In this document: positions 9,458 through 32,252 of the stretch, in pieces
Layout of the letters: the number at the start of each line of letters is the position of its first letter
Position numbering within the stretch: position 1 is the first letter of the stretch
NCBI GenBank assembly: GCA_001823105.1
Contig: MHTO01000004.1
Location: 1-36,508, forward strand
Length of the DNA: 36,508 nucleotides
Reading direction: 5' to 3'
From: Candidatus Wildermuthbacteria bacterium GWA2_46_15
Lineage (GTDB): Bacteria > Patescibacteriota > Minisyncoccia > Minisyncoccales > GWA2-46-15
The notes under the pieces: generated by a model
What the model was told of the DNA's origin: nothing
The model's input: the letters and a program-made list of their open reading frames with translations, nothing else
The model's database searches: none
Position numbers and translations under genes: made by a program

Positions 9458-9517
9458 TAATTTTCTCCTATAAAACTACTAAAGAACCCGGCCGCATGAT
9501 GACATAGGCGGCACTGA

Positions 9518-10099: not shown

Positions 10100-10307
10100 C
10101 GTTTTCTCCATTGACCGACCCATGACCCACGGAACGCCAAAGGCCGGATATCTCCTTCCAGCCTCCAAAACCGGCCCATAAATACATATTAACAGGCTCA
10201 TCAGTCAACGTTGTGTCCGATTGTTTTTTGTCTGTAAAATACCACAACAGTCCCACCTATCCTCTTATAATGTAAAATTGTCTTTCAACGTTTTAGCCGG
10301 GGGTATC
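10100..10307. promoter_or_regulatory. Divergent control region between the mini-DnaB-like operon and the WYL regulator gene
   Basis: There is a perfect TATAAT at 10266-10271. TGTAAAAT repeats at 10233-10240 and 10271-10278. TTGTCT repeats at 10228-10233 and 10278-10283. TCAACGTT, which holds the AACGTT palindrome, occurs at 10205-10212 and 10285-10292. Confidence 0.35.
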
Positions 10308-12982: not shown

Positions 12983-13251
12983 ATATCAGAGCAGTACAAT
13001 TCTATTTTCGAATCACGAATAATCGGCAATTATTTTAGCGTTATGGGCTCCATTCTATCTACCCCCCCGCTAGCAAAACCGCGGCATGGGAAAAAAGTCA
13101 TTTTATTATTTGCTGAGGCATAAAAAATACCGTTTTGATTTAACATGTGCCTCAACAATACTAAATTCACGCGCTCCGATCTTTATATTACCTGTCCATA
13201 AAGAATAGTTGTCTGTCTCATATTTTTCACGCTTCTTTGCAAAGCCCATAT

Positions 13252-16080: not shown

Positions 16081-16166
16081 TTGTATATGCCTTAATGGTC
16101 TACTCACACAGCAGCGCGCGATTTTAATATTATCTATTATCCAGACAGAACTTTAAATTCTTTGCT

Positions 16167-19100
16167 TTAAATATTCCTCACCCATACACCGTTGCTTAAT
16201 TTCCCGGTCGTGACCTTGCCAAGAATTTTCCCCTCGTTAACAGAATAAACAAAACCATGGCGGCGCTTTACAAGCCCAAATATTTTTTTAGAATCAACAA
16301 TAATAGCGGCAGAATCACTCTCAGGCGCCTTGGTTACGCCAACCACCGTATAATTACCGGCGCCAATAACGCTAGTTAGGGCGGCGAGTACTGGCGCAGT
16401 ATCAATAGCCACCTTCAGCTCACTGGAAGGCTTACTTAACAAGTCAATCAAGGCTTTCAATGAGGGATTTTGCCCAAACAGATAACTGCGCAGAACTGGC
16501 AAGCCGGTCAGCGCACACTGTCCCATATCCTCCGGGTGATAGATCCTTCCGCTCCAGGCACAAGACAAAGCTTCTTTAGGGAGACAATAATTGCCCAAAC
16601 ACGACATAACCGCCTTAGTTTTAAGCATTGGCACCTTTGAGACAGACCCGGTAACCAATAGTTCGAGAAGCGCCCTTTTATGGGTAATAGCGCATTCTCC
16701 TACAAGCTGCGGCACTACCTGTTTATTTGTTACCTCACACTGTCTTAATATCCCTGGCGCCACAAGTTCCCCTGTTATATCGCAGCGCTCTGCCTCATCC
16801 GGCAGGAGCCACTTGCCCGTATGCTGACACCGGATAAATTCGTTCCGGTGCCCACGCGTCAGTGAAATCGCCGAAACCGCAGCCTCGTCGTTCCGGAAAG
16901 ATTTACCTGAAACCTGACTAACCTCAAGTTCTGTATTAAGCACATCGCTGCCAGTGAAAGAGCAGACGCCGAAATAAGAAGGCTCCCCTCGCTTGTGGTT
17001 GATAGGGGAGATCTTCATGGCAGAGATCAACACAGCCCTGCCACTAAGGTCTGAAGTTGCTACCTCCGTGGACAAAACCCGCTTACCAGTTAATGCACAC
17101 TGCACAATATGCTCTGGGAGGGCATACTTAGCAGTATCCTCCGACTTAATAAGCAGATGCCTAAGTGCACGTTTACCTGATACGGCGCAAGCCTGGAAAC
17201 ACGTTGAGGGGGCCCTTGCTCCGCCCTCACCGTAAACCTCCAGCGGCGGGGCGCTTAAAACGGCCCCAGTTTCGTTGTCTATGGACATATCACAGTTGTA
17301 CAGCGGAGAGTCTCCAAGGCGGAATTGCGTCTCAAATTGTATTACTTGCTTTACAGAACCCTTTAAACCGGCAAGGTCCGGCTGCAGCCTGGGGGTAAAG
17401 TCCTCAGTGAGTTTTTTAATTCTTCGCTCATCCCCGGCGGCACTTCTCAATTCTTCGGATAGTCGCTCCATATAGAACCGGCAGAATTCCACAATATCAG
17501 GATCTTTTGCGGCTTCTGAAGCAAGGGCAGGCAAGTCGATTCCAAGCGACTGAGGGGCTATATTTACCAACTCCCGCGCCGCAGCCTGCGCTACGCCGTC
17601 AACAACAGGGCACGACAGCTCCATCAGCTTCTCATAGCTGTCGTGTGCCATGCTAACACGCACGCGCAAAACGGCTTCCCCGGAAAATTTATTAGATACT
17701 GCGGTATCGCGAGCGGTCTCAAATCTACCGCCAAATGATGCCACCCAGCCACCGCAAGCTGCCCGTGCCTCCACCCTTATCTCCGCATTTATCCCTTGCA
17801 CAAAGCATTCGTTTTCTTTTGCGTGTTTACTAACCAAGTTCTCAAATTCCGGCCTGCCGGGAGTATAAATGGTAGGCGGGTGAATCAACCCGGCGGCTCC
17901 TTTTTCATCAAAGACAAATCGATTCTGACGGAATAGCTGGCTCATTACATAGACACCGGGATTTTCCTCTCTGTAAACGACCCCGGCCTGTTTAAAGGCG
18001 TTAAAAACAAAATCCTTTGCACTCATTGACTTTTCCTGGCTGGAGAACTTCGGCGCTCTCGGGCCTTGGGCCTGATTACTGTCCATTGAGCCGAGCAGGC
18101 TATTAATATTCTTCTCTTCCCGCTTCAGCTCTTCCTTGGCCTGGGCTATGCTCGCAGCCTTAAGCTCAGTTTCTTTTTCCACATCTTTGCCCGCCAGGGA
18201 GGCCAGCACAAGCCTGCGCAGCATATCCTCAAACTTGGACTCCTTCTCCCCCTCTTCAAGGCCTGCGGCTTCCAGTAAAGACTCTATATCCCCGATGGCG
18301 TGCGAAGCGAGCTGGAGTTTCTCCATCAGCCGGCCCACTATTTTTTCCTCAAAGGTTCCCTGCAGAATTGCGTTGAAAATAATTACATTCTGATGATTTG
18401 ACCCCAATCTTTGTATGCGTCCTACCCGCTGTTCAACGACCATTGGGTTCCAGGGTAAGTCATAATTGAGCAGAACATTGGCCACCTGCAAATTAACACC
18501 CTCCGCACCAGCTGCCGTAGATATTATCACATTGACTCTGGGAGGGTCAGTTTTAAACCTTGCTATAGCGTCTTGGTTGCGTATAGAAGAATCTCCGTTG
18601 ATAAAGGCACAGGGGACCTGCAAGCGGTCTAAGTACTCACCTATAGCATTCTGGGTTTCACGAAGTTCCGTAAAAATAACCAACCGCCAGTCCCTGGGGC
18701 GCTCCGCCCTTAGCTGCGCTAGCAGAGAGTCTAACCCGCTCAGTTTGGCCGTAATTCCCATCTCTCTGACCACGACAGACACTTTATCCGCTACGTCTTG
18801 TGGGAAGGTCCCTTTGGCCGCCATATTATTTAGCTGGGAGGCCAGCGCCTGCGGGCTGCTGACAAGAGCCTTCGCTATGGATACCTGCGCCAGTCCATTA
18901 AGCTGCTGGATGGGCGCGGCTATCAGCTTGAACAATTTAAGCTCACTCTCAGTCGGAAGCACTTTATGAGAGCGCACAATGCGCTCTGGGAATGTCAATT
19001 GAGCATCTCCACGGCGGACACGGGACATATAGTTGTAGACAATAGACCGGAACTCGGTTTTCCGGTGTGTTTTTAACTGGCGCGCACTGGTGTGTGAGTC

Positions 19101-19865
19101 GGCTATATAGTTGCGGGCAAAACTATCTTCTGAACCGAAAGGATTTGGATGGCCCCTAGCCACAGAGAGCAAGTCTATAAGCGAATAAAGATCCCAGAGA
19201 CGATTCTGTATCGGGGTAGCAGTTAGCATAAGAACATACTTAAAAGTCCTTGCTGCCAGCGACTGCCTGATTCGGGTAGCCCATTCCGGAGATGAGTTGC
19301 CGCCGTAAAGGTTCCGAAGCTTATGCGCCTCATCCAAGATAAGCATATGGAAACCGGCTGCCTCCAACTGATCCATATATCTGCGCACCGAATGGTAAGT
19401 AGTTATCAGGGCGCCCTTCTCCGCTTTCTGCAATTTATTGGCAGCGGTAACTAGTTTGGAACCTACTTCAAGTTCAGAATCAATTCCGAATTTAGTTTTC
19501 AGCTCTTCCTGCCATTGCGGCATCAGCAGTTTGGGACATACAATCAGGACTTTGGACACACGTGAACGGTAAATCAGTTCGCTAAGTATAAGCCCGGCAC
19601 TTATGGTCTTGCCAAGTCCGACATCATCTGCCAGCAGGGTGACCGGTAGTCTTCGGCAAAAAGTTATCAGGTTCTGCACCTGGTGCTTGTAAGGTGTAAC
19701 CAGGTCTACCCACTTTGGCTTGGATTTAAAGTCAGCTTCCCCTTCAAGCACAATGGGATCTAGGAGATCCCACTCCAGGGCGGCCTTATGCAAAGCGTAA
19801 GCCTCTGCGCTAGGCGCAAGCTTAAGGAAGGGAGCCTGTAAGGGCTGAACAATAATGTTCGGCAT
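16167..19865 (-). CDS. SNF2-family helicase/translocase with a C-terminal extension of about 650 aa carrying a 15-residue repeat array
   Basis: Motifs seen: LLADDVGLGKT (I), LILDEAHKLRN (II), MLTATPIQNRLWDLYSLIDLL (III), GAEGVNLQVANVLLNYDLPWNPMVVEQRVGRIQRLGS (V/VI). Confidence 0.9.
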   Translation of the reverse strand: MPNIIVQPLQAPFLKLAPSAEAYALHKAALEWDLLDPIVLEGEADFKSKPKWVDLVTPYKHQVQNLITFCRRLPVTLLADDVGLGKTISAGLILSELIYRSRVSKVLIVCPKLLMPQWQEELKTKFGIDSELEVGSKLVTAANKLQKAEKGALITTYHSVRRYMDQLEAAGFHMLILDEAHKLRNLYGGNSSPEWATRIRQSLAARTFKYVLMLTATPIQNRLWDLYSLIDLLSVARGHPNPFGSEDSFARNYIADSHTSARQLKTHRKTEFRSIVYNYMSRVRRGDAQLTFPERIVRSHKVLPTESELKLFKLIAAPIQQLNGLAQVSIAKALVSSPQALASQLNNMAAKGTFPQDVADKVSVVVREMGITAKLSGLDSLLAQLRAERPRDWRLVIFTELRETQNAIGEYLDRLQVPCAFINGDSSIRNQDAIARFKTDPPRVNVIISTAAGAEGVNLQVANVLLNYDLPWNPMVVEQRVGRIQRLGSNHQNVIIFNAILQGTFEEKIVGRLMEKLQLASHAIGDIESLLEAAGLEEGEKESKFEDMLRRLVLASLAGKDVEKETELKAASIAQAKEELKREEKNINSLLGSMDSNQAQGPRAPKFSSQEKSMSAKDFVFNAFKQAGVVYREENPGVYVMSQLFRQNRFVFDEKGAAGLIHPPTIYTPGRPEFENLVSKHAKENECFVQGINAEIRVEARAACGGWVASFGGRFETARDTAVSNKFSGEAVLRVRVSMAHDSYEKLMELSCPVVDGVAQAAARELVNIAPQSLGIDLPALASEAAKDPDIVEFCRFYMERLSEELRSAAGDERRIKKLTEDFTPRLQPDLAGLKGSVKQVIQFETQFRLGDSPLYNCDMSIDNETGAVLSAPPLEVYGEGGARAPSTCFQACAVSGKRALRHLLIKSEDTAKYALPEHIVQCALTGKRVLSTEVATSDLSGRAVLISAMKISPINHKRGEPSYFGVCSFTGSDVLNTELEVSQVSGKSFRNDEAAVSAISLTRGHRNEFIRCQHTGKWLLPDEAERCDITGELVAPGILRQCEVTNKQVVPQLVGECAITHKRALLELLVTGSVSKVPMLKTKAVMSCLGNYCLPKEALSCAWSGRIYHPEDMGQCALTGLPVLRSYLFGQNPSLKALIDLLSKPSSELKVAIDTAPVLAALTSVIGAGNYTVVGVTKAPESDSAAIIVDSKKIFGLVKRRHGFVYSVNEGKILGKVTTGKLSNGVWVRNI
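16488..17201 (-). repeat. Protein-level 15-residue periodic [C/S]xx[T/S]G repeat array in the SNF2 C-terminal extension
   Basis: The array holds CAVSGKRAL, CALTGKRVL, DLSGRAVL, CSFTGSDVL, SQVSGKSF, CQHTGKWLL, CDITGELV, CEVTNKQV, CAITHKRAL, CAWSGRIY and CALTGLPVL. The Gly positions are spaced 15 or 30 residues apart over about 240 aa. Confidence 0.7.
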
Positions 19866-19912: not shown

Positions 19913-22900
19913 TTATTTTTGTAGCCTAGTCACAATTTCACAAAACGGGACTTCCCACTGGTCCACTTGTAGTTTTTCAGTGAATTCCGGTTTGTCGCTG
20001 TCGGTTTTATAGCGCTGGACCATGCCTAAAACGCGTATAGACTCTATATACTCTAATTGCGGCATCCATTGGGCGGAAACCAGTTTCGAAAGTAGTGCAA
20101 CTTGGACTTTATTACTATCAATCAGCCCGACCTTATCTCCGGACTGGATTGCAGTCAGCTTATCACCTGTTTTTAAGTTTGCCAATGCACCATGAAACGG
20201 CCCACCAGGCTCTAACCTGCCGGCATAATCTATAAAAAGGTCTCCAAGGCCAAGCAAAGAATAATCTCTCCTGGGAGTATCGCCATCAATGGCAGATGTT
20301 TCTGCCCTATAGATAAAGCACTCCCCTTTCAATTCAGGCGAAAAGATGTTTTTTGTGTCCTGTCTGTCAAAAATCGCAAGACTATTTTGCGCGCGGGTCA
20401 TTCCTACATAAAATACGCGGCGTTGCTCCTCTATAGGAGTGTCCCGATTAATATCATACCCCCAATCTCCGCAGAGCAATACATGCGGGAACTCCTTACC
20501 TTTAGCTGCATGCACAGTTGATAAAACAACTCCCTCACCAACACTTTCATCCTTACGCAATTGGTGCAAGGACTCATAAATAAAGTCTACAAACAGTTTA
20601 ACCGGAGTCTTCTCATTTTGAGTCTCAGCACGCCAATCATCAAGTAAGTCACTAAGAAGGCGAAACCATATATTGCCGTCTGGTTGTTTCTGCTCCAGGC
20701 CAAGCATTGCTGCAAACTCATCTGCATTTGCAATTAAATTCTCATCTATACTCAGAGTATCTAAAGCACGCCGAATCTCTCGAATCCTATGCAGTGGAGG
20801 CATTTTCTTCCCGTCTATAGGCCAGGAGACCGGCACTGATAAGGCTTCCGCTCGACTTCGAATATAAGAGAGGTCCACATGGTTTCTAGCCAGTATAGCG
20901 ATACTGTCCCATCTTTCTATCCCCAGCGACTTTAAGCGCACAGCCTCTTTAATTGCAGCCTCGGCCTGCCCAAGAATATCATTAACCTTAACAACAGATA
21001 CCTTACCCTTAGTCAAAGCATCAATATCCCCGAATTGGCCACCAGGCGACTGCATTGATCGGAATTTATTGATCCGAATTGGACGATCCTTCTTCATTCT
21101 GTCTTTATTGTGTTCAATAAGAGTGTTTGAGGCATCTATTATATTGCCACTAGAGCGATAATTCTCAATAAGCTCTTTTACATCTGCGCCATAATCGATT
21201 TGGAACTGCTTAATAAATTTAACGTTGGACCCACGAAATCCGTAAATACCCTGATCATCATCTCCCACCGCAAGTATAGAGAGCTTTCTATCACTTTCAC
21301 TATCCTTAAGCTTTCTTCCAGCAATAGCGCTTATCATGGCATACTGCTTTTCATCTATGTCCTGATACTCATCTACTAGAATATGCTCAAATCCAGCCAA
21401 TAACCTATCGCGAACCTCATCAGCCTCCAGGCCGGCAACTGTTTTGGTTCCGTTAAGAACCTCAACAACATCAGAAATCATGTTCTCAAAAAAGTTCTCT
21501 GCCTTTCGCGCTTCTTCCATCATATCCGCAACGGATAAGCCCAAAATGCGCAAAGCCAGAGCATGGTAAGTTTGCACTGTCACTCCACGAGCATCTGCCC
21601 CCACCAAATCCGTAAGCCTACGCCGAATCTCGATGGCAGCTTTATGTGTAAAACAGCAAATCAAAATGCTCTGCGCTTTAACACGCTTAATGCGCAGCAA
21701 ATACGCACAGCGGTGAACAACAGCGCGTGTTTTCCCAGAGCCAGGCCCAGCTAGAATCAGCATTGGTTTAGTTGTGGGGGCTGTAACTATCTGCTCCTGC
21801 GCTCTATTCTCGAGCTTTTCGACTATCTTGTCATAAGAGTTGGCTGTCGTAGCCATCTCCAATAAAGCCTTTTGCTTAGCAAAGAACTTGGCAACAAAAG
21901 ATTCCTTGCTCATGATAAAATAAGCAAGAACCAAATGAAGAGCGTCCTGTATTCGGCTTATCCCAAGATTGGCATACTCATTCATTACATGTACCTGAAA
22001 AACTCTTTCTTTGTAATGATGATGAACCCTTTCATAATTCTCTGCAGAGTATTGCTTCCCTTGTCCCTCTGGCAGAACCTTAATAGTCATAGCAGTGCGG
22101 AAGATTGAAAGCCCCTTCTGTAAAACTATCACTTGCTGCTCATGCAGGAACAGCAAAGCTTGTTCTATCGCAGCATTCCAATCTTTTACGGCTTGCTTTA
22201 AATCTGGATCCTTCTGTGCGACTTGTACCAGGTCTTCATAAGTGAACTCCACTAATAAGTCGCGCGCAGCCTGCGCTTTCTCTGGAGCACAAGCCAGAAG
22301 CTTAGCGAGAACAACTTCAGCAACCCTCAACTTATTATTAATATTTTCTGTAACCTTGCCCCACCCACCGGTTATCTTAACCCTGTAGATATCACGGCCA
22401 GTAGAACGAAGGGTTATTTCCCCCTCATGCGCATTAAAGATATGACTATCAGCCTTAAAACTCTTCATAAGCTGCCGCAACAAGGGCAATGAACAATCAA
22501 AATCTCGATTGCGCAGTTCCTGGTTGAGCTTTTTCAGATCAAGCGGCACATAACCATTAGGATCTGGGTCATATTCACCTAGTGTTTTAACAATCTCTCT
22601 ATTTAAAACGGCAATACGTTCTGCTCTTTTTATAGAGCTATCCTCAATTTTGTAACGCAAATAGGCGCTAAGAAGAGTACTCTTCTGCAGTACTCCGGCG
22701 CCTACCATGGCGTCTAATGTCTTAAACACCTTAGAACTGAGATATTCGCAGCCTCCACGATCCCTAACAAACTCTTGTGGAAAATCATCTTTAGAGATTT
22801 TTGCATAAGCAGCAAATTCCGGCAGACCTGCAAGATCATCAATTCTGATAGAATCATTCGCAGGGGTTGAAAAAATATACTGAAGAATAGCCAACCAAAG

Positions 22901-25126
22901 TCGGCTTTCGCCCTCTGAAATCCCAAGACTTTTCAGTTTGATTTTAGCCTCTTGTATAGAATTAACAAGAGGTTTAGCTTGCAGCACATTAGTAAGGTTT
23001 TCATTGCGCTCCAAAAAACCTTCTCTCTCAAGCCAGGCGATCGCTGTACGCACCTTTGTATCTGCATTTGCGTCGCCAGCTTGAAAATTTACCTCAACAT
23101 CTTCATCTCTTAACAACTCCCCGGTAGTAATAACAATCTCGTCAGTATGGCGCTGTATTGCCGCTTTTCTCAGACCGCGCAAAATCTGTGCTATATCCCT
23201 TCTGCTAAGTTCGGAAAGCGCGCTAAGCCGGAACTGCTGTTCGCAATCTTCTTCGTTGTAGAGCAGAATACAGTCGGCCTCCTCCTGATCCCGACCTGCA
23301 CGCCCGGCTTCTTGCAAATAGTTTTCAAGCGAAGCCGGTGTATCTCCATGTATGACAAGGCGAATATCTTGTTTATCTACGCCCATGCCGAAGGCATTTG
23401 TGGCACATATTACTTGAATGTCTCCAGCAAGGAACAAGTCTTGAACTTCTTTTTTCTCCGACACAGTAAGCCCGGCATGGAAATGACGAGCACGCCACCC
23501 TTGCTTTGAAAGGAACCTAGCCGTATCCTCTGTGTCTGCACGTTTAGCGCGAAAAACAACAGCATAAGCCTTAGCATCCTTCCCAAGGCGCTCTCCAAGC
23601 AAATCATTTATTCTAGGAAGCTTGATCATTGCAGGGACCATCTGCACTTCAAATTTAAGGTTGGTGCGTTCAACTCCTCCCTCAAAAAGAGACATCTCTG
23701 TCCCAGTTTCGTTTTTAAAGTAAGCTTGAACGTCTTCAATGACATCCTTCTTGGCGGTAGCGGTAAAACAAGCTATTGGCGGCACAGGGCAATTCTGCTC
23801 CATGGCTATTTTCTTTATGACCCGCCCTGAATAAAGATAATCGGGGCGGAAATCGTGCCCCCATTTAGAAAGACAATGTGCCTCATCCACTACCCAGCAG
23901 CCGATTTCCCGTGACAGAAGCGCTTTGTACACCGCTCGGCTACGCAACTGTTCAGGGGAAAGATAAAGCAGTGCAATGGAACCGGATCTGATGCTCTTCA
24001 GCACATCTGCCCTTTCAGGCAGAGTTAGTATGCCGCAAAGCGCGGCACAGTTATGAAGACCTTGGCGCTGTAGACTGTCCACCTGGTCCTTCATTAAAGC
24101 CTGCAACGGGGAAATAACAACTGTCAGGTAGCCTCTTCTTGCATTCCGGACAAGTGCCGGCAATTGAAAGCCCAAGGATTTGCCACCACCTGTGGGCATT
24201 ATAGCCAGCAAAGACTCTCCGCGCATGCCAGCATTAACAATTTCTAATTGCAGGCTATTACCATTTGTATGTTTAGGTTCATCACGAAACTTATCAAAGC
24301 CAAAATACTGCTTAAGTTGCTCCCCAGAATTATGGGCTTTGGTGCAATAAGAACAAAGAGGATCCGAGCAGGGGACATCTCTTAATTCGCTTAAAAAAGA
24401 GGTTATTGTAGGATAATGCAGCCTAACCCAAGGCTGCAGCACTGAGTCTGTGCGGGAAATGCTAAGCAACCGTACTGAATAAGCCATAAGCCAGCGGGAG
24501 TTTTCTGTGGCTATGTTTGCGTAAGCCACCTTCTTGGCTGCGGTTTTACAAGAGAACTCGCCAAGAATGCTTTGGATACTCTCAATAATATCTTTCGGGA
24601 GTTTAACCGTAGGTGCCGCTTCGTCTAAGACCGCGTGCATCCCCTTAGAAAGCAAAGACTCTTCTTTCGGGTTACAAATCAATTCTTTTAATACGGCATA
24701 CAACTCGGGAGATGTTGATGCCAGTTCACGCAACTTAGATATTTCGTCTATTAAGAGCTTTTGTGCCTGTTTGCAATCCGAAACAGGATCATTCATGGCA
24801 GCTGGAACCAGCTTATAGTCTTTTATAAGATGGTGATATGGATTAGCAGGGAAGCAGAGAGGCGACAGTAAGAGGGTATCAATAATAGGCAGCCTTAGAA
24901 TCTTTGCTTCCGGAAAAGACTGTTTAATCATTCCTAAGTCATGCTTTAAAATATTATGTCCCGATACAAACTGTGCCCCGGCAGCAAAAGCATCAAGTTG
25001 GCGCAAAGCCTCTGCTTGATTAAATTTACCAGAGCAAAAGAATGTCTTTTCACCTATGACAGCACCAATCTTAAATATTTTGCCGGTTTGGTTAGTCTCA
25101 AGGTCTAGAAATAGAATGTTTTGCAT
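19913..25126 (-). CDS. Triple-fusion nucleic-acid enzyme: DnaQ/DEDD-like exonuclease + RecQ-family helicase + UvrD/PcrA-family helicase (1737 aa)
   Basis: Exonuclease: FLDLETN, SGHNILKHDL, IIDTLLLS. RecQ: MPTGGGKS, VVDEAHCLSKWGHDFRPDY, CFTATA, ATNAFGMGVDKQDIRLVIH, QEAGRAGRD. UvrD: LAGPGSGKT, LVDEYQD, AVGDDDQGIYGFRG, ENYRSS, VHAAKGKEF, FYVGMTRAQ. Confidence 0.85.
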   Translation of the reverse strand: MQNILFLDLETNQTGKIFKIGAVIGEKTFFCSGKFNQAEALRQLDAFAAGAQFVSGHNILKHDLGMIKQSFPEAKILRLPIIDTLLLSPLCFPANPYHHLIKDYKLVPAAMNDPVSDCKQAQKLLIDEISKLRELASTSPELYAVLKELICNPKEESLLSKGMHAVLDEAAPTVKLPKDIIESIQSILGEFSCKTAAKKVAYANIATENSRWLMAYSVRLLSISRTDSVLQPWVRLHYPTITSFLSELRDVPCSDPLCSYCTKAHNSGEQLKQYFGFDKFRDEPKHTNGNSLQLEIVNAGMRGESLLAIMPTGGGKSLGFQLPALVRNARRGYLTVVISPLQALMKDQVDSLQRQGLHNCAALCGILTLPERADVLKSIRSGSIALLYLSPEQLRSRAVYKALLSREIGCWVVDEAHCLSKWGHDFRPDYLYSGRVIKKIAMEQNCPVPPIACFTATAKKDVIEDVQAYFKNETGTEMSLFEGGVERTNLKFEVQMVPAMIKLPRINDLLGERLGKDAKAYAVVFRAKRADTEDTARFLSKQGWRARHFHAGLTVSEKKEVQDLFLAGDIQVICATNAFGMGVDKQDIRLVIHGDTPASLENYLQEAGRAGRDQEEADCILLYNEEDCEQQFRLSALSELSRRDIAQILRGLRKAAIQRHTDEIVITTGELLRDEDVEVNFQAGDANADTKVRTAIAWLEREGFLERNENLTNVLQAKPLVNSIQEAKIKLKSLGISEGESRLWLAILQYIFSTPANDSIRIDDLAGLPEFAAYAKISKDDFPQEFVRDRGGCEYLSSKVFKTLDAMVGAGVLQKSTLLSAYLRYKIEDSSIKRAERIAVLNREIVKTLGEYDPDPNGYVPLDLKKLNQELRNRDFDCSLPLLRQLMKSFKADSHIFNAHEGEITLRSTGRDIYRVKITGGWGKVTENINNKLRVAEVVLAKLLACAPEKAQAARDLLVEFTYEDLVQVAQKDPDLKQAVKDWNAAIEQALLFLHEQQVIVLQKGLSIFRTAMTIKVLPEGQGKQYSAENYERVHHHYKERVFQVHVMNEYANLGISRIQDALHLVLAYFIMSKESFVAKFFAKQKALLEMATTANSYDKIVEKLENRAQEQIVTAPTTKPMLILAGPGSGKTRAVVHRCAYLLRIKRVKAQSILICCFTHKAAIEIRRRLTDLVGADARGVTVQTYHALALRILGLSVADMMEEARKAENFFENMISDVVEVLNGTKTVAGLEADEVRDRLLAGFEHILVDEYQDIDEKQYAMISAIAGRKLKDSESDRKLSILAVGDDDQGIYGFRGSNVKFIKQFQIDYGADVKELIENYRSSGNIIDASNTLIEHNKDRMKKDRPIRINKFRSMQSPGGQFGDIDALTKGKVSVVKVNDILGQAEAAIKEAVRLKSLGIERWDSIAILARNHVDLSYIRSRAEALSVPVSWPIDGKKMPPLHRIREIRRALDTLSIDENLIANADEFAAMLGLEQKQPDGNIWFRLLSDLLDDWRAETQNEKTPVKLFVDFIYESLHQLRKDESVGEGVVLSTVHAAKGKEFPHVLLCGDWGYDINRDTPIEEQRRVFYVGMTRAQNSLAIFDRQDTKNIFSPELKGECFIYRAETSAIDGDTPRRDYSLLGLGDLFIDYAGRLEPGGPFHGALANLKTGDKLTAIQSGDKVGLIDSNKVQVALLSKLVSAQWMPQLEYIESIRVLGMVQRYKTDSDKPEFTEKLQVDQWEVPFCEIVTRLQK

Positions 25127-25145: not shown

Positions 25146-26606
25146 CTAACTCATTGGTCTTTGAAAAACATCAGAAAGTGCATTAACAACTTCTCCGGCA
25201 TCTGATGACATTGGGACTGAAACTATAACTATTTCAACTACTCTTGAGCCTGAGTTTACACAAGTGCGCACAACAACCTGGTTCCGTTCTAGCAGGGACT
25301 GAAAAGTCTCCATTCGGCATGGATAAACAAGGCATGCCACAACCCTAGGCGTATCAAACAAAGAAGAGTAGGCAACTACCTGTAAAAGATCCTTACGGTG
25401 GCGCTCCCGAATTTCCTCTTCAACATTGCCCCAACCACAAGACTGGATCTCTTCAGCATGCGCTTTATATTTAGCATCCAGAACCATTGTAACGTCGCCA
25501 CGTTCCAGCACAACGTCTGGGATGAAGGCCTTCTGGGAGCCAGAATAGGAAGGTTTCCAATCTAAACTCACCTTTGTTTGACCCAGGCGACCAACTCGCA
25601 AAGAAGCCCCACATTTTTTAGATACCAATTCACCTATTGTTTCAACCCAGGCCTCGAAAAACGATTCCATATCCATCTGCCAAGACAAACCAGCCAGCTC
25701 ATTTAAGCCAGCTAGGCCCCGTTCTTCTATAGTCCACTCTATAGCCTGCAGACCATCCTTAACATCCTTAGGAAGCAAGGCTCGACTTTGCCACGTTTTG
25801 ATCTGCCGCACATTCGGACGCCGTGGCGTATTACTGTTAACACGTGCTATTAGCTCATTGCATAGAGCCAGCAGTTTCAAAACAACAACCCCAGCAGTCC
25901 GCTGCGCCAGCAGTGAGGATGAATGCTCTTTTAATACGAAGTGTATAGCAGCCCTTAAATCGAAATCATCCCTAAGATCAGGGAAGGTGCATGGCACCGA
26001 CAAGTGCTTAGCGTGGGGTATCTTACGAATGATGTAGGAATCCCAATCAACCGCACCTTTTGGCATAGAAACATCTTCTTCTATAACGGTAAACTTCCTG
26101 GACAACTTATCCAGCATGCCCTTAATTCTTAAAAGGACAATAGAAGACAAAACCCAAGGCGGTATTTTCCTGTCAGATTGTGGGAGCTCAGCGTAAGGCA
26201 GCAACTTAGGCACTACACGGAACCCTGTAGCAGTCAAAACCTCACCAATAGACGTCCAGGCAAAACGTGGCTCTATAATAAGCCCCAGGTCATATTTACC
26301 CGTTGCTGGGGACACTAATGGTAAAGCACCTATTCTGCTTGAGCTGTGAAAGGAAAGGAACGCCTTGCTGTCACGTCGCACCACATCAGAAGATATGTGG
26401 AACTCACGCAGTATATTACTGTTCGTCTTAAGAAGAGCCTCAGCTTGCCGTTCAGCATGCGATTCTTGATCCCGTACTGCAGACCCACCAAACCAGTTCT
26501 TAGCCTCAATCAGCGCGTGACTTGTGTCGAAAATACGCTGACATCGCCCTATAGAGCGAGTAGGCATGGGCCGCCTGGCCGTAATTATTGGTCTGCGTGG
26601 GGGCAT
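25146..26606 (-). CDS. mcrC: McrC-like PD-(D/E)xK nuclease subunit of a McrBC-type restriction system
   Basis: FIPDVVLERGDVTMVLDAKYK is the McrC catalytic D...D-x-K signature. There is an N-terminal RIGALPL...LGLIIEPRF block. The gene starts 4 nt after the mcrB stop. Confidence 0.8.
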   Translation of the reverse strand: MPPRRPIITARRPMPTRSIGRCQRIFDTSHALIEAKNWFGGSAVRDQESHAERQAEALLKTNSNILREFHISSDVVRRDSKAFLSFHSSSRIGALPLVSPATGKYDLGLIIEPRFAWTSIGEVLTATGFRVVPKLLPYAELPQSDRKIPPWVLSSIVLLRIKGMLDKLSRKFTVIEEDVSMPKGAVDWDSYIIRKIPHAKHLSVPCTFPDLRDDFDLRAAIHFVLKEHSSSLLAQRTAGVVVLKLLALCNELIARVNSNTPRRPNVRQIKTWQSRALLPKDVKDGLQAIEWTIEERGLAGLNELAGLSWQMDMESFFEAWVETIGELVSKKCGASLRVGRLGQTKVSLDWKPSYSGSQKAFIPDVVLERGDVTMVLDAKYKAHAEEIQSCGWGNVEEEIRERHRKDLLQVVAYSSLFDTPRVVACLVYPCRMETFQSLLERNQVVVRTCVNSGSRVVEIVIVSVPMSSDAGEVVNALSDVFQRPMS

Positions 26607-26610
26607 AAGG

Positions 26611-28068
26611 TTATTCTGTTAGATCAAGCCATTCAATATATGCGCGTATTGAATCCGAAAAGCCAGAAACGTAACCCTGAAGCAAATACTCATTCAGCAA
26701 AGGCTTAAGCCCAGCATTAAGGATGCTTTTAGTGTTACTACCCCCATCTAGGAAGTATGCATGCCCAGGCATAAGTGAAAATGCCTCATTCGTGGCCTCT
26801 TCCATAAATATAAAGAATAATCTCTGGAAAGCATCCTTCATCCGCTGACTAGCGCCCATACTTTGTAAAACATTTACATCTGGCCATAAGGAGATGAATG
26901 AAAACCTGCGCCTAACCGCTATATCCAGAATTGCAATACTTCTATCCGCACTATTCATGGTCCCAAGTATATGCAAATTGCCTGGCAGCTTAACCTTTTT
27001 GTCAAAAGGGACCCCGAAATCATGAAAGACTTTAATCTCACGGTCCGGCTCTGTCGGCTCAAAGAGGAATATCGCCTCTCCGAGCACTTTTGCCAGGTCT
27101 GCACGGTTAATCTCATCTATATGCAACAAATAATTTTTATCTGGATTTTTAGAGGCTTCTGCGGCCGCGTCCATCAGATGTCCCCGCCGAGGAGTGAACT
27201 GCAGTCCAGTATTGTTCGCGCCCTGTGAAGGAGCTAAGCCACCAATAAAAGTTTCATAGGTGGTCCCAGGGTGGAATTGGATGCTGGCGCCTTTCCCTTC
27301 ATAAGGTCCTGTAATTAACTTCTCGGCTAATCTTGTTTTGCCGGTACCAGGAGGGCCCTCAATAATAACAAAGCGCCTCAAATTCAAGAGTGCAGACACT
27401 TCTGCTTCTGTCGTATTCGGCATTGCTTTAGATACCCACTCATCCGTAGCGGCTTTTTTCTCCGGCTGGAATGGGGTAAGTGGCTCAAGGCCACGCTCTT
27501 CTGCAAATACATCACAGAAGGTATGGGCTCCCTTTTCAATTAAAGACAACGCCGCTGGATCATCAGAAATAAACATCGCGTATAAAACCTTTTCATATTT
27601 ATCAGTCGCTGTTTTATAGTTATTTAGCCGACCAGAAACATACTTAGGCATGCCCAGATCAATGCGGACCGGGTCCGGCTTAGCCCATGTAATATCTTTT
27701 CTAGCTAGATGGCTTAACCACCTGGAAATAGCCAGAACCTTCCTTGCATGGCCAGGCCGGCTTAATGCCTGCTCGTCAGGACTTAGTCCATTAGTGCCAA
27801 TTCCCAGGCAAATAAGCGCCGGGGCATCTTTGGAAGGGAATATAACAAAACTCATCCCGCCATATGGGCCACTTTTAGGTTGGCCAGCGGGGATAAATGC
27901 CGCGAATGGTGCAGCATCTTCATTCGTTTCCCCATTTACGCGTATTTGAATCTTTTTATCCCATTTCGCCCCATATCGTTCCCGTGCAAATCTCTCAAGA
28001 TCTGCTTTTGCAGAATCTGCCCAGGACCCATCCAATCTTTTAACAATCAATTCAGATAATGCCGACAT
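26611..28068 (-). CDS. mcrB: McrB-like GTP-specific AAA+ motor subunit with an unassigned N-terminal (presumed DNA-reader) domain of about 225 aa
   Basis: Motifs seen: FVIIEGPPGTGKT, IQFHPGTTYETFIGG, LLHIDEINRADLAKVLGEAIFLFE, ILGTMNSADRSIAILDIAVRRRFSF. GGAGG RBS 7 nt upstream of the ATG. Confidence 0.9.
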   Translation of the reverse strand: MSALSELIVKRLDGSWADSAKADLERFARERYGAKWDKKIQIRVNGETNEDAAPFAAFIPAGQPKSGPYGGMSFVIFPSKDAPALICLGIGTNGLSPDEQALSRPGHARKVLAISRWLSHLARKDITWAKPDPVRIDLGMPKYVSGRLNNYKTATDKYEKVLYAMFISDDPAALSLIEKGAHTFCDVFAEERGLEPLTPFQPEKKAATDEWVSKAMPNTTEAEVSALLNLRRFVIIEGPPGTGKTRLAEKLITGPYEGKGASIQFHPGTTYETFIGGLAPSQGANNTGLQFTPRRGHLMDAAAEASKNPDKNYLLHIDEINRADLAKVLGEAIFLFEPTEPDREIKVFHDFGVPFDKKVKLPGNLHILGTMNSADRSIAILDIAVRRRFSFISLWPDVNVLQSMGASQRMKDAFQRLFFIFMEEATNEAFSLMPGHAYFLDGGSNTKSILNAGLKPLLNEYLLQGYVSGFSDSIRAYIEWLDLTE

Positions 28069-28140: not shown

Positions 28141-30411
28141 TTATGGCAGAATTCTGGGCGGGGTTAAATCCATCTCCCACCCGTATTCTTTGGTATCTTC
28201 AATCGACTTTGGTGAAGGAAAGCCCTCACTCTCTGCGATTGCCTGAACAAATGCCCCAAGTTGCTTCTCCCCTAGTATAAAATCCTTATATGCTTGCCTT
28301 TGCTTTGCATATCTCCATATCCTATCATCATAGCCCCCAGGGTACTTAAGTAGCTCCATAGTTATATCAGTGCCTTTAACAAGGTCTCGGTAAATACGGC
28401 CGGTCCGTTGCTCAATAACAGTGGGATTCCAATGCAGGTCATGGTGAATTACGTTGCTGCAAGCTTTTTGCATATCCAGACCTTCCCCGCCAATCTGACT
28501 CACAAGCAGAATATGTGGTGGGACCCCTGTGGAGTTGAAGGCCTCTAAAACCCTAGTCCTCCGCGCCCTGGAGCTTTCACCTGTAAATTTCTCGACTATT
28601 CCATATTGTCTAAAAGGTAATCTCCCTATTAGCTTATTATACTTAGGAGTGTTTTCTGGCTTACTAATGAAACCGCGAAGCCTGGCGCGCATCTGCCTTA
28701 CAGAAATTCTTTCCCCACCTTCTCGAGTAAAGTCTTCAGAGATTCTCTTTAATACTTCCTTCCAGTGTTTGATTAAATCTGGGTAGCCACTTCCTCTAAA
28801 CCGCATGATTCCACGAACAAGTGCGTCATGTATGCATACTCTTTCTTCGAATTCCAATCCCTCGCAATCTTTAACAAACATTTCTTCTAAAGACTGCAAG
28901 TTTATCCCAGCGTCATTAAGTATGCGTTGTGCCTTTCTCCACACCTTATTGTTTTTGATAGGCTTTTTTTTGCCCGCTAATAGGGGCTTCCCTTCAAATT
29001 CACAAACAATTCCATTTCTTTTTTCCAATAAGGTTTTCTGTGCTTTCGCTATAGTCGACAAGTGATTAAAGAAAACAACTACCTTCTGTGATTGCTTCCC
29101 ATTGCCCAACAATAAGCATCTAACTCTTTCAATCAAGACGCGCACCTTGGCGTGCGTCCAACCTGAAAACAATTCATCCACTTTTCCTTCCTTCAGATTA
29201 AATCTTTTAATTATCTTTTTATGAGGATGCGCCTGGGCAGCCTGGAACTTGCCCCGATGCAACGCAGCATGTGCCGAGCAAAGCCTGCTATAACCATTTG
29301 GGAGAAATTTCCCACCGGGAGGCGGCTCATCATCAAACTGCCCATACTTTGCATGGGCATTTTGCCGGAGGTAGGCACGCCCAAAGAGATATAAAGCTGT
29401 ATCTGCTGCCTCAAGCTTAAACGATGGAGTATGCTCCTCAACTTTTGGTTTGGTATTTCTTATTACCAGAGCGCGCAAATACTCATCAAGACCATCCTGC
29501 GCACGGTGCCCAACTTCAACGCCAAAAGTGCGGCCAGTGGGATCTAATGGCGCGTCAAAGTTTATATCAATGCAATTCAGGAGTTCTTTAAACTCTTGTT
29601 TTATAGTGCGGGGATCCCCGTCTTTAATCAATTTATCTAATTCCGTATCAAGAAGCTTAAGGCTATATTTGATTGCGTTAACAATAGAGGGCTGAAGAGG
29701 CATTTTCCCGCCTGCTTTAAGGTCTGAGATAAGTTCAAAATCAGGCTCATATTTTAAGTCTAGGAAATGCAATAAATGAATAAGCTCCTGCCGACTATCA
29801 CACTGGAATGGCGTCGCAGATAAAAAAAGGAAAGGGCAGGTTTTTTTATTGTCACGTATACGCTGAAGGGCCCTGGAAAGTTGTGTGGAACATTTACGTG
29901 CCTTGTGGGCCTCGTCCAACACAAGCAAATCTAGTTTTGAAACCCATCCTGGCAATTTGCCTCTTGTAAGCTTTCCCGCTTTACTTGTAGGAAACAAGCG
30001 TATACTTGATTTTTCCCCATCTGCAGCTCGCCCCATGGCTTTTAAAACCTTTTTAAGGGGTGTATTACCTTTAATGCCGGGCATTGCTGCCTTACAGAAT
30101 AAACGAATTTCTTCTTGCCATTTCTGAATAAGGCCTGGGGGAAGAAGAAATGCGGCGCGGCGGCCTGTTGTGTGGCTAGCAAGATAAAGCGCTGCCGTTG
30201 CCAAAGCCTCCCATGTTTTCCCCATTCCAACTTCGTCCGCCAGTAAAGCTCCGGCTCGCCCCGACATTAGCCGGGGGCCCTCCCCTTTAAGGGCCTGCAA
30301 TGCGGCCGCCACAGCCCGACCTTGATGCGGTCGAAGAACAGTCTTCCCTTTCTTGGGAAAAGCCCAAAAAGAAGGTCCACCCCACCGTAATGGCTTTTGC
30401 CGGCGGCTCAT
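28141..30411 (-). CDS. SNF2-like SF2 helicase (756 aa from the coupled ATG)
   Basis: Motifs seen: LLADEVGMGKT (I), LLVLDEAHKARK (II), FLSATPFQ (III), GGEGLDMQKACSNVIHHDLHWNPTVIEQRTGRIYR (V/VI). The ATG at 30411 overlaps the PLD gene TGA stop (ATGA). The longer track ORF is an upstream in-frame extension. Confidence 0.8.
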   Translation of the reverse strand: MSRRQKPLRWGGPSFWAFPKKGKTVLRPHQGRAVAAALQALKGEGPRLMSGRAGALLADEVGMGKTWEALATAALYLASHTTGRRAAFLLPPGLIQKWQEEIRLFCKAAMPGIKGNTPLKKVLKAMGRAADGEKSSIRLFPTSKAGKLTRGKLPGWVSKLDLLVLDEAHKARKCSTQLSRALQRIRDNKKTCPFLFLSATPFQCDSRQELIHLLHFLDLKYEPDFELISDLKAGGKMPLQPSIVNAIKYSLKLLDTELDKLIKDGDPRTIKQEFKELLNCIDINFDAPLDPTGRTFGVEVGHRAQDGLDEYLRALVIRNTKPKVEEHTPSFKLEAADTALYLFGRAYLRQNAHAKYGQFDDEPPPGGKFLPNGYSRLCSAHAALHRGKFQAAQAHPHKKIIKRFNLKEGKVDELFSGWTHAKVRVLIERVRCLLLGNGKQSQKVVVFFNHLSTIAKAQKTLLEKRNGIVCEFEGKPLLAGKKKPIKNNKVWRKAQRILNDAGINLQSLEEMFVKDCEGLEFEERVCIHDALVRGIMRFRGSGYPDLIKHWKEVLKRISEDFTREGGERISVRQMRARLRGFISKPENTPKYNKLIGRLPFRQYGIVEKFTGESSRARRTRVLEAFNSTGVPPHILLVSQIGGEGLDMQKACSNVIHHDLHWNPTVIEQRTGRIYRDLVKGTDITMELLKYPGGYDDRIWRYAKQRQAYKDFILGEKQLGAFVQAIAESEGFPSPKSIEDTKEYGWEMDLTPPRILP

Positions 30412-32252
30412 GAGTGCCTCCTTTTCATGACTTTTTCTTTTATTCTGGGGACATATTCTGTTTGACCTTCTATCCACATTCCGCTTTGGGCCCATCGCCC
30501 TAGCTGTTTTATAATGCGGGAATCTTTTTTAAAAATATCGCCACGCCAAGCGGAAAAGCCTTTCCTAATCTGCCTAAAGATATTCGGCTCATTCTCTCCA
30601 ATCTTATCTGAGTTGCTTTGTACAGCAAGTAGCCGAGTAGCTAGAAACAAATAGCAGCCCGTGCGCACTTTCTCCGGTATTACATCAGAGAGACAATCTA
30701 AATGCATCTTTTCTCGCCATAATTCTTCCAGTAATCCCATATGAGAGGGGTAAGGGTTTTTAAGATCTTCACCAATAGCCTTGCAAACACTTAAGGATCG
30801 CCGCTCATACTCATCTAACTCAGCGTAAACGCCTCCCTCCTGTGAGACGCCATCCCCCGGCTTCCCCCCAGGCCTAGGTTTTTGATGGACACCAGTCCCT
30901 AAATTAGGATTTCCTCCCCATAAAGACTCCGCGCCCTCTGGTTCAGGATCAATAGTTTCAAGTAAGGTCAACTGGCCTTTTAATCCACCCCAGACAACTG
31001 TCACACGCGCCTCATTTCTTAAAGCAGCTTCTACTTTTCCTCTTTGGTTTTCTGGCAATTGATACAGCCCTGGCCCTTTCTTTGTGGAATAGCTGTTAAG
31101 ATTAAACCGCTTTTTATTAATTTCCAGAAAAGGAAGCATGGCAGGAAGCTCCGCAGAGGACTGCGCCCAAATCTCAACGGTTCCACTTGCCGGCATGTAC
31201 CAGGCAATGAGTCCCTCTGTTTCTATCTCAACCTCTCCATCTTCCGGCTTATCCCAGGTCAGGGTATCGTCTGATGGAAGCTTTTGCGTAGGGACTGAAT
31301 AGTAGAATTCTCTAAATCCTTTTTTTGATACTGGGAGAGCAATCATACATTCAGCACGATGCCGGGATAAGCTTCCGGCTTTCTTGAAAAGCCCTGGCTC
31401 AGTAGCATTGGCAGAGCCGGTAACAAGAAGCCCCCCTCCGTTAAAACACTCAAAGGCTAAGACCTTAGAATGAGGAAACTGTGAAACCAACTTACCCTTG
31501 GCTATATAAAGACGGTCTTTCCATTTTTTCATCCCCTGAAGGATCCGCTTTGATTTATGCTCCATTGCAGGAACAACTATTTTAATCTGACTGCGAGAAA
31601 GTGAAAACTTATCAACCAAGCCGTCCACCGCCACGCTAGAAAGATATGGAGAGAAAACCGTAAGACTTTTGACTGGTTTCCCCTTAAGCAACCTTTTGAT
31701 TCCATCTGCTATGGATTCATTATCATTATCTAACCACCGGGGCTCATCCTGCCCGGGGCGGTTATGCAAGCCAGCCTCAAGTTGGCTAAGTCTTTTTATC
31801 CAGGTAGGATCCACATGCCAAGGGAGTTTGGCAAAACGGTTTTTAAGCCACCTAACTGCACCTAAAACCAAATGCTGCGAGGGTTGCGCAATTAGACTGA
31901 ATATCTCAAGATTATCCCCACCGAAACCAGGTGCTGTTAAGTTTGCACTGGAAACAGAAAGGGCGACTCCGGTTGTTCCACGGGAAAGCACTATTTTCCC
32001 ATGTATTCCATTAGAAGGATCCGCAAAGACCGTTCTAAAGCTTTTATTCTGAGACACTTTATGTCGGGCGCCTGTTTTATCACTAAGTATAAGAAGCTGC
32101 CCCAGATTAAGATCTTCGCTTCTAACTAAGTCATCAATATGGTTTTCATTAAACTCATAAGTGGTTGCGATGGACCATTTTGCCCCACCAATTTCTTCGG
32201 CAGCTTTTGAAATAGCGTCAACTGGATCTTTGAATAAGTGATTAGCAGGCAT
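30408..32252 (-). CDS. Phospholipase D-superfamily nuclease with two HKD motifs and a C-terminal region of about 300 aa with no recognised motif
   Basis: HKD-1 is IHGKIVLSRGTTGVALSVSSANLT (31941-32003). HKD-2 is PHSKVLAFECFNGGGLLVTGSANAT (31407-31472). GGAGAA RBS. Confidence 0.8.
   Translation of the reverse strand: MPANHLFKDPVDAISKAAEEIGGAKWSIATTYEFNENHIDDLVRSEDLNLGQLLILSDKTGARHKVSQNKSFRTVFADPSNGIHGKIVLSRGTTGVALSVSSANLTAPGFGGDNLEIFSLIAQPSQHLVLGAVRWLKNRFAKLPWHVDPTWIKRLSQLEAGLHNRPGQDEPRWLDNDNESIADGIKRLLKGKPVKSLTVFSPYLSSVAVDGLVDKFSLSRSQIKIVVPAMEHKSKRILQGMKKWKDRLYIAKGKLVSQFPHSKVLAFECFNGGGLLVTGSANATEPGLFKKAGSLSRHRAECMIALPVSKKGFREFYYSVPTQKLPSDDTLTWDKPEDGEVEIETEGLIAWYMPASGTVEIWAQSSAELPAMLPFLEINKKRFNLNSYSTKKGPGLYQLPENQRGKVEAALRNEARVTVVWGGLKGQLTLLETIDPEPEGAESLWGGNPNLGTGVHQKPRPGGKPGDGVSQEGGVYAELDEYERRSLSVCKAIGEDLKNPYPSHMGLLEELWREKMHLDCLSDVIPEKVRTGCYLFLATRLLAVQSNSDKIGENEPNIFRQIRKGFSAWRGDIFKKDSRIIKQLGRWAQSGMWIEGQTEYVPRIKEKVMKRRHS

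Follow-up and report, generated by a model that had tools for sequence, protein, structure and literature searches.

Architecture of the fusion gene

We analysed a 36,508-nucleotide stretch of DNA from Candidatus Wildermuthbacteria bacterium GWA2_46_15 (contig MHTO01000004.1, positions 1–36,508; hereafter "the window") that contains, on its reverse strand, a gene whose product fuses an exonuclease fold to two helicase motors. The gene (19913–25126, reverse strand) is an uninterrupted open reading frame (ORF) of 1737 codons with an ATG start and its stop codon at 19913–19915. It encodes a single chain of six parts, all given here with their reverse-strand positions in the window. A DnaQ-like (DEDD) 3'-5' exonuclease fold, identified from an AlphaFold2 model and a Foldseek search, occupies residues 1–138 (24713–25126) and is followed by an all-helical module with an invariant Cys4 cluster (residues 139–268; 24323–24712), delimited from the secondary structure of the model and from alignments. 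The RecQ-family superfamily 2 (SF2) motor core (residues 269–627; 23246–24322) was recognised by the Pfam families DEAD and Helicase_C and by the NCBIfam model TIGR00614. A conserved, winged-helix-like linker specific to the family (residues 628–1104; 21815–23245), traced by alignment and an AlphaFold2 model, connects this core to a UvrD/Rep/PcrA-like superfamily 1A (SF1A) motor (residues 1105–1590; 20357–21814), recognised by Pfam and by BLAST alignment to E. coli UvrD. A conserved C-terminal tail, defined by alignment only, completes the chain (residues 1591–1737; 19916–20356).

Pfam places DEAD at residues 291–464, Helicase_C at 516–613, UvrD-helicase from residue 1107 (E = 1.8e-43) and UvrD_C up to residue 1585, with AAA_19 and UvrD_C_2 also matching within 1107–1585. 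No Pfam family matched residues 1–270, 630–1105 or 1585–1737, even at E ≤ 10, and the Cys4 module, linker and tail, which make up ~40% of the chain, have no relatives in Pfam or the PDB. An ORF of such length with such scores is far beyond chance. A first reading of the sequence (the original prediction) had described three enzyme modules in one intact ORF; this description is borne out by the ORF, by the Pfam and NCBIfam matches and by the N-terminal fold search, and the coordinates it assigned to the modules are arithmetically correct.

The N-terminal exonuclease domain

Residues 1–138 are not recognised by sequence libraries: single-sequence and profile searches against Pfam and PDB sequences returned nothing significant, RNase_T (PF00929) and similar Pfam families did not match the protein at E ≤ 10, and one of 32 family members matched RNase_T, at E = 0.19. 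We built an AlphaFold2 model of residues 1–265 on 32 diverse family members, obtaining a mean predicted local distance difference test (pLDDT) score of 92 and a predicted TM-score (pTM) of 0.89. When this model was compared with the PDB using Foldseek, the best matches were almost all DnaQ-like DEDD 3'-5' exonucleases, among them the exonuclease domain of E. coli Pol II, the TREX1 homologue Plex9.1, S. aureus DinG, RNase T, REXO2/Orn and Cap18. The Foldseek probability was 1.00 for most matches, with TMq values of 0.36–0.45 and E-values of only about 1e-3, the latter since only about half of the modelled region is exonuclease core.

Profile alignment with hhalign to E. coli DnaQ, RNase T and ExoX gave a weak global score (probability 1.4, E = 0.015) and was used for motif mapping only, read together with the fold match. 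In this mapping, D8 and E10 correspond to DnaQ D12 and E14 (Exo I), H57-N58...H62-D63 to HNAAFD103 (Exo II), D83-T-L to D129-S-L (a conserved D-[ST]-L motif), and N112-D-P-V-S-D117 to H162-G-A-L-L-D167 (Exo III). A family signature, FPxNPYHxLxKDYKL, lies at residues 92–106. Residue conservation, here and below, was counted over 167 distinct family members with 37–75% identity to the protein encoded in the window. The four DEDD carboxylates (D8, E10, D63 and D117) are invariant, as are H57, N58, D83, Y97 and H98. Where DnaQ has the DEDDh general-base His (H162; N112 in our protein), 160 of 165 members have Asn and 5 have Ser, and the domain does not conform to the DEDDy alternative, having no Tyr at −4 from D117 and Asn/Ser five residues before it. 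Judged from the model and the alignment, the N-terminal domain is a DEDD fold with an intact metal site and a non-canonical fifth residue. The original prediction had offered HHLIKD (residues 98–103) as a possible Exo III; these residues correspond instead to the DnaQ helix lying ahead of Exo III (NSLDALCARY), and NDPVSD is Exo III. Its doubt about exonuclease activity remains legitimate on other grounds, namely the Asn/Ser at the DEDDh His position.

The same substitution favours an alternative in which the DEDD domain would bind DNA as a sensor, either of 3' ends or in a metal-dependent way, or would degrade DNA very slowly. The protein would then be mainly a dual-motor translocase or remodeller. 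The compactness of the domain (about 135 residues), which all sequence models of exonucleases missed, points the same way. However, degenerate, non-catalytic DEDD domains usually lose their carboxylates, whereas all four metal-binding carboxylates are strictly invariant in this family, and the invariant H57, N58, Y97 and H98 could supply an alternative general base. We consider a sensor or near-inactive nuclease rather unlikely.

The RecQ-like and UvrD-like motors

The RecQ part contains core motifs 0–VI, including GGGKS (K316), DEAH (414–417), WGHDFRPDY and QEAGRAGRD, and scores 293.7 bits against the NCBIfam recQ_fam model TIGR00614, above its cut-off of 219.8. It is 37% identical to E. coli RecQ, with the alignment spanning RecQ residues 17–344, that is, the two RecA-like lobes alone. 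No Pfam RQC or RecQ_Zn_bind match was found in the protein, and comparison of the linker with RecQ residues 345–609 by hhalign gave a probability of 0.0, although a structurally divergent winged helix may be present. Likewise, neither Pfam nor profile comparison detected an HRDC domain, and the score against the bacterial RecQ equivalog TIGR01389 (319.9 bits) lies below the cut-off of 640.2. K316, the DEAH residues D414, E415 and H417, and the arginine fingers R609 and R612 are invariant.

The SF1A motor contains the motifs GSGKT (K1132), DEYQD (1252–1256), GDDDQ, NYRS and TRA, and matches PF00580 at 149.7 bits (cut-off 23) and PF13361 at 72.8 bits (cut-off 25.6). BLAST aligned it to residues 11–98 and 214–625 of E. 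coli UvrD, with a shortened 1B region. Its scores are far below the cut-offs of all the UvrD-family equivalogs compared: uvrD (187 against 1144), pcrA (202 against 911), rep (158 against 951) and helicase IV (128 against 543). K1132, DEYQ, Q1292 and R1324 are 100% conserved, and R1578 of motif VI is found in 164 of the 167 members.

Conservation of the catalytic residues across this range of identity points to selection on all three activities; by the evidence of the alignment, all three catalytic centres are under purifying selection. The original prediction had allowed that a module might lack its catalytic residues throughout the family, which is contradicted for the exonuclease carboxylates and for both ATPase sites.

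The Cys4 module, linker and C-terminal tail

C193, C253, C258 and C261 are strictly invariant, and H265 is present in 157 of the 167 members. This cluster is presumably a zinc site; its position ahead of the helicase core is unlike that of the zinc subdomain of RecQ, which follows the core. The helical module that contains it had no Pfam match and no PDB sequence match. The 477-residue linker has a mean column identity of 65% in the family alignment, and its AlphaFold2 model, of moderate quality (pLDDT 73, pTM 0.51), comprises about four helix-helix-helix-strand-strand units followed by a long terminal helix. Foldseek returned nothing significant for the linker, and there was neither a Pfam match nor a sequence relative in the PDB. 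Weak matches to winged-helix proteins recurred (RPC62/C82, PadR/MarR-type regulators, TFIIE, ESCRT-II and RTP), and we tentatively interpret the modelled linker as tandem winged helices. We also considered the linker as a divergent RQC/HRDC region, for which profile comparison gave no signal, and as an internal sequence repeat, again with no signal.

In the tail, R1705, W1724, P1727 and E1730 are invariant, and an invariant W-E-x-P-x-x-E motif lies near the end. The tail matched neither Pfam nor PDB profiles and was not similar to the C-termini of UvrD or RecQ; its assignment as a UvrD C-terminal domain was rejected for lack of any such signal.

Family size and distribution

At least 120 of the 5.8 billion protein clusters searched matched the fusion protein; they are 1596–1790 residues long and 49–75% identical to it, and nearly all cover 97–100% of the query. 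Where a cluster was named, the only name was "RecQ family ATP-dependent DNA helicase". We also scanned genomes of 185,579 species, one genome per species, with the peptides [CA]FPENPYH and [RH]L[VI]KDYKLV, choosing this N-terminal signature because whole-protein peptides mostly returned ordinary recQ genes. The scan yielded at least 581 confirmed loci. In the best 80 of these, the whole architecture (residues 1–1732) was present wherever the contig was long enough, in one frame in almost all cases and with a single frame break in a few contigs from metagenome-assembled genomes (MAGs). Full-length homologues with 36–38% identity are found on 26 plasmid records, among them complete plasmids of cultured Allochromatium vinosum DSM 180, Thiothrix fructosivorans ATCC 49748, Rhizobium, Paracoccus and Cereibacter. 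Because the full-length, single-frame architecture recurs in many species, and on complete plasmids of cultured strains, we reject the explanation, raised with the original prediction, that the gene is an assembly chimera or carries a frameshift between modules.

We then compared a profile hidden Markov model (HMM) of the N-terminal domain with 1.84 billion cluster representatives, and obtained 1522 matches at E ≤ 1e-3, 1060 at E ≤ 1e-10 and 386 at E ≤ 1e-30. Among the best 150 matches, 60 were full length, 47 were colinear fragments ending at contig ends, and 42 were colinear up to a low-complexity tail typical of frameshifts; an alternative architecture was found in none. Among close relatives, the N-terminal domain appears from these comparisons to be confined to the triple fusion. 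Candidates for stand-alone or alternative architectures were rejected, the short database entries being contig-end fragments or frameshift artefacts.

Hosts among the listed loci belong to Verrucomicrobiota, Kiritimatiellia, Lentisphaerae, Desulfobacterota, Alpha- and Gammaproteobacteria, Planctomycetota, Methylomirabilota and Acidobacteriota, with one Bathyarchaeota MAG. The majority of family matches are on chromosomal contigs. This patchy spread over many phyla suggests horizontal transfer.

McrBC linkage and gene neighbourhood

The fusion gene is the third in a run of five same-strand genes in the window: an mcrB-like gene (26611–28068), an mcrC-like gene (25146–26606), the fusion gene itself, an SNF2 helicase gene (16167–19865) and a gene for a UvrD-like protein (13252–16107). 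The gaps between them are 4, 19, 47 and 59 nt, such that the fusion gene starts 19 nt after the mcrC-like gene, and no terminator-like sites were found between the genes of the run. Across the window, promoter-like sites were below the mean of shuffled sequences and terminator-like sites ~1.7 standard deviations above it, near the shuffle expectation. Co-transcription of the fusion gene with McrBC and the two further helicases is plausible.

This arrangement had led to the proposal, in the original prediction, that the fusion protein acts on McrBC-generated ends. As a downstream effector of the adjacent McrBC, it would load on McrBC-cut ends of modified DNA and degrade or unwind the fragments. 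The 19-nt spacing on the same strand, with no terminator between, favours such a role, as does the presence of McrBC upstream of the fusion gene in two relatives. In one of these (locus L166, 75% identical), McrBC is orthologous to that of the window (67–70% identity); in the other (L175, 54% identical), it is unrelated, with a McrB only 29% identical to that of the window and a McrC barely detectable by BLAST. However, an extra, unrelated gene lies between McrBC and the fusion gene in both (ORFs of 352 residues in L166 and 277 in L175), and neither a second 75%-identical relative (L164) nor a 60%-identical relative has McrBC in its context. Moreover, tblastn with the McrB and McrC of the window matched none of 82 family loci. 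HMMs made from three proteins each for McrB and McrC and run on 92 family loci matched L166 and L175 only, with no match in any of the 80 species-level loci, giving ~3 of 93 loci overall. On the basis of these searches, we reject an obligate McrBC partnership. Since McrBC is common in defence islands, occasional adjacency is expected, and the arrangement in the window is probably a local accident of the island. A role as the effector of McrBC is very improbable.

No other partner was conserved. When ORFs flanking the fusion gene within 6 kb were clustered, the most widespread families, present in at most 5 of 79 loci, were housekeeping genes shared among close relatives. We also classified 138 randomly chosen flanking ORFs with Pfam and PADLOC; the most frequent family was HNH_2, in 4. 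Because no neighbour is conserved, we regard the fusion gene as an autonomous unit. The HNH_2 endonuclease is exemplified by a 328-residue protein (L134:7353–8339; PADLOC "HNH" up to 8.7e-127) encoded a few hundred bases upstream of the fusion gene; it lies upstream in 3–4 of about 79 loci, and is thus the most frequent neighbour family, yet rare.

Of the 13 contexts inspected, ~10 include defence or mobile-element genes (a raw count, uncorrected for background). The window encodes GmrSD, a WYL regulator, KaiC/DnaB-like ATPases, McrBC, PLD and SNF2 proteins (ZacB/ZacC-like) and an HsdR fragment. The context of the 60%-identical relative (P0004) includes TIR, Hachiman, PIN and Fic; that of L164, PLD-helicase/DUF3427, nSTAND and caspase; that of L166, HEPN, NucS/EVE and a transposase in addition to McrBC; and that of L176, SIR2-HerA, NERD and RadC/SSB. 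On plasmids, the gene is accompanied by type I restriction-modification, HNH and an integrase (L170, pALVIN01 of Allochromatium) or by CRISPR type I-D and WYL (L171, pTfr153 of Thiothrix). HipA is found at L172, integrase/excisionase at L001 and L175, and a transposase at L173.

Several neighbouring genes at these loci are recorded here in their own right. Both plasmids encode, within 2–9 kb of the fusion gene, a small gene annotated "3'-5' exonuclease" (L170:22608–23106 and L171:15664–16245). Directly upstream of the homologue P0026 lies a giant gene of 1739 residues with no Pfam match (L176:4545–9764), in the island with SIR2-HerA, NERD, RadC and SSB. A cluster upstream of the homologue P0010, within an integrase-bounded element (L001:2178–9971), encodes a PKD-repeat protein, a Tubulin_2 (PF13809) protein and two large proteins without Pfam matches.

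The plasmid and integrase contexts bear on a further alternative, in which the protein would serve the mobile element itself, in establishment of a plasmid or of an integrative and conjugative element, in anti-defence or in competition with other elements, and not host immunity. The occurrence on 26 plasmid records and beside integrase/excisionase pairs, RadC/SSB and transposases is consistent with a selfish function. By contrast, no full-length homologue was found among 50,697 phage records, the family shows no tie to a particular replicon, relaxase or integrase family, and most of its matches are on chromosomal contigs. We judge a selfish function improbable.

Proposed function

In the reading that we prefer, and for which we judge the case evenly balanced, the protein, a member of an uncharacterised family, is a stand-alone helicase-exonuclease with a horizontally mobile gene, and acts in anti-mobile-element defence. 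We favour this role because the fusion gene is mobile, partner-less and resident in defence islands. In PADLOC, the protein is most similar to the defence helicases DpdF, PsyrT and GajB, over the motor cores only.

RecQ-family and UvrD-family motors both travel along single-stranded DNA (ssDNA) in the 3'-5' direction, and DnaQ-like nucleases digest strands from their 3' ends. Assuming that both motors of the fusion protein keep the 3'-5' polarity on ssDNA typical of their families, a 3' tail, nick or gap in foreign DNA (a phage, plasmid or replication intermediate) would be the loading site, perhaps recognised through the winged-helix and zinc (Cys4) modules. The protein would then unwind the duplex using ATP, while the N-terminal exonuclease would digest the displaced 3'-ended strand behind or beside the motor. 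The outcome would be a one-polypeptide DNA-resection effector against mobile elements, and the simplest model would resemble WRN or Gram-positive DinG. Two motors of the same polarity might act in tandem on one strand, or on opposite strands to unwind divergently from an internal entry site; alternatively, one motor might be a double-stranded DNA translocase or a protein-displacing "wire stripper", as UvrD is. The "DNA-degrading or unwinding machine" of the original prediction is reasonable insofar as it implies helicase-coupled DNA processing, since the fusion and its catalytic residues are conserved.

Several points weigh against a defence role. The role is inferred by guilt by association, and some loci lie in plain housekeeping surroundings (L002/L003 and L174, among ordinary metabolic genes); the 138 random flanking ORFs likewise mix housekeeping with defence and mobile-element genes. 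No component for self/non-self discrimination is evident, the full-length protein is absent from the phage records, and PADLOC 2023 holds no full-length model of the family. At the level of mechanism, an exonuclease without the DEDDh His could be slow, differently catalysed or non-catalytic, and any model must accommodate the cooperation of two motors of the same polarity.

It is possible, but doubtful, that the family represents a new class of single-protein immune effectors in which SF2 and SF1A motors act together with a non-canonical DEDD exonuclease and structure-specific winged-helix/Cys4 recognition. For example, the motors would engage both antiparallel strands at a nick or gap, leading to bidirectional unwinding or loop formation. 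If so, this would be the first characterised enzyme in which a SF2 (RecQ-type) and a SF1A (UvrD-type) motor act together in one chain.

The main rival to a role against mobile elements is repair: the protein would be a host enzyme for chromosome or megaplasmid repair, recombination or fork processing, an accessory analogue of RecQ/UvrD pathways with a built-in proofreading-type nuclease. RecQ, UvrD and DnaQ-like exonucleases are classical genome-maintenance enzymes, and several observations are consistent with such a function: the loci among housekeeping genes, the occurrence on large rhizobial and Paracoccus replicons, the high conservation (about 50% identity across phyla) and the lack of a self/non-self discrimination partner. 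In addition, DinG of S. aureus/B. subtilis, which the N-terminal model resembles most closely by TM-score, has been connected with replication stress (PMC12525004). However, the spread is patchy, with at least 581 of 185,579 species representatives scattered over many phyla; insertion sites are variable; and integrases, transposases or defence systems lie near most inspected loci. Variable sites and a patchy spread are the pattern of accessory mobile genes rather than of core repair genes. We regard a repair function as somewhat unlikely, and retain defence against mobile elements as the preferred role.

Machines that combine a helicase with a nuclease play a central part in DNA repair and in many recently discovered anti-phage systems. 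The label "RecQ family helicase" hides a large unnamed family in hundreds of species from several phyla. Culturable carriers exist (Allochromatium, Thiothrix, Rhizobium and Paracoccus). The family could reveal how two motors are coordinated in cis and whether a DEDD nuclease can act without the canonical His/Tyr, and it is possibly a new one-gene defence system. It also serves as a warning that function cannot be read from a single operon-like adjacency inside a defence island. No characterised protein known to us has an SF2 motor, an SF1 motor and an exonuclease in a single chain. The literature searched, coverage of which was incomplete, contained no account of an exonuclease-RecQ-UvrD fusion, such that a prior description is possible.

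Other features of the window

Upstream of the mcrB-like gene, three overlapping or adjacent genes (28141–33501, reverse strand) encode a 784-residue SNF2 helicase (PADLOC ZacC, 1.9e-22, among DrmD and DpdE matches), a 614-residue PLD-domain protein (ZacB, 8.3e-09) and a 419-residue protein with no matches; this cluster may be an Azaca-like or PLD-helicase defence system. Directly downstream of the fusion gene, positions 11393–19865 (reverse strand) encode a 1232-residue, DrmD/BrxH-like SNF2 helicase that recurs in 1 of 82 family loci, a 951-residue UvrD-like protein with a large insertion in domain 1A, and a 529-residue Sel1-repeat protein. The SNF2 and UvrD-like pair recalls ArmA and ArmD of ARMADA II (PMC13463889); the methyltransferase and DUF1998 helicase, other parts of that system, are absent beside the pair.

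The remainder of the window is likewise defence-like. It contains a GmrSD type IV restriction gene (4046–5932), a WYL/WCX regulator gene (10221–11291, forward strand) divergent from two genes for KaiC/DnaB_C-like ATPases (8870–10201), and, at the window edge, the C-terminal part of a type I HsdR (EcoEI_R_C, within 35256–36488). A gene for a ClpB-like AAA_2 ATPase (1587–3236, forward strand) lies in a segment of higher GC content (0.55) with a strong AT skew (0.25 at 2001–3000). Scans of the whole window for tRNAs and Rfam families returned nothing.

Comparison with known systems

The best PADLOC matches of the RecQ core are DpdF (340 bits) and PsyrT (269 bits), which cover the motor core only (model positions 8–357 of 610 and 9–377 of 689, respectively). 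Against the NCBIfam DpdF model NF041063, the protein scores 170.9 bits, below the cut-off of 550, and it has no dpd neighbours. RqlH is described as RecQ-like, lacking HRDC and carrying non-canonical accessory domains (PMC3378886), features that it has in common with the fusion protein. Compared with RqlH/PsyrT and DpdF, however, the fusion protein lacks a ComF/PRTase-like domain, a conserved antitoxin and dpd genes. UvrD, PcrA, Rep and GajB share all SF1A motifs with the second motor, which GajB models match at E about 1e-48; by contrast, the fusion protein has a shortened 1B region, a different C-terminal domain and no GajA/OLD nuclease partner. ARMADA II consists of SNF2, methyltransferase, YprA-DUF1998 and UvrD-like proteins and contains no such fusion (PMC13463889). 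We rejected membership of ARMADA, DISARM, Dpd, Gabija and PsyrTA, given that similarity is confined to the motor cores, partner genes are absent and scores lie below curated cut-offs.

RecBCD, AddAB and AdnAB also combine two helicase-type motors with a nuclease, and RecBCD also acts against foreign linear DNA. These enzymes are multi-subunit, have SF1 motors only (of opposite polarities in RecBCD) and use PD-(D/E)xK nucleases, whereas the fusion protein is a single chain with SF2 and SF1A motors of the same nominal polarity and a DEDD exonuclease.

RqlH/PsyrT, DpdF and GajB are thus nearest for the motor cores, while the fusion protein itself has its closest analogues in WRN and Gram-positive DinG. 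In WRN, as in the fusion protein, a 3'-5' exonuclease precedes a RecQ-family 3'-5' motor, an order that would allow helicase-coupled degradation of the 3' strand. WRN has an exonuclease of the RNase D/DEDDy type together with RQC and HRDC domains, whereas the exonuclease of the fusion protein is DnaQ/epsilon-like, RQC and HRDC are undetectable and a UvrD-type motor is appended. The analogy with WRN drawn in the original prediction accordingly holds for architecture, while common descent is unsupported.

Gram-positive DinG (S. aureus/B. subtilis) differs from the fusion protein in its XPD-like Fe-S motor of 5'-3' polarity, in place of a RecQ-like motor, and has neither an SF1 motor, a winged-helix linker nor a pre-helicase Cys4 module; the fusion family, unlike DinG, has Asn where the canonical Exo III His is expected. 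Nevertheless, DinG likewise places a DEDD 3'-5' exonuclease N-terminal to an SF2 helicase in one polypeptide, and its structures (8zef/9ii8) are the best match to the N-terminal model by TM-score (TMq 0.45).

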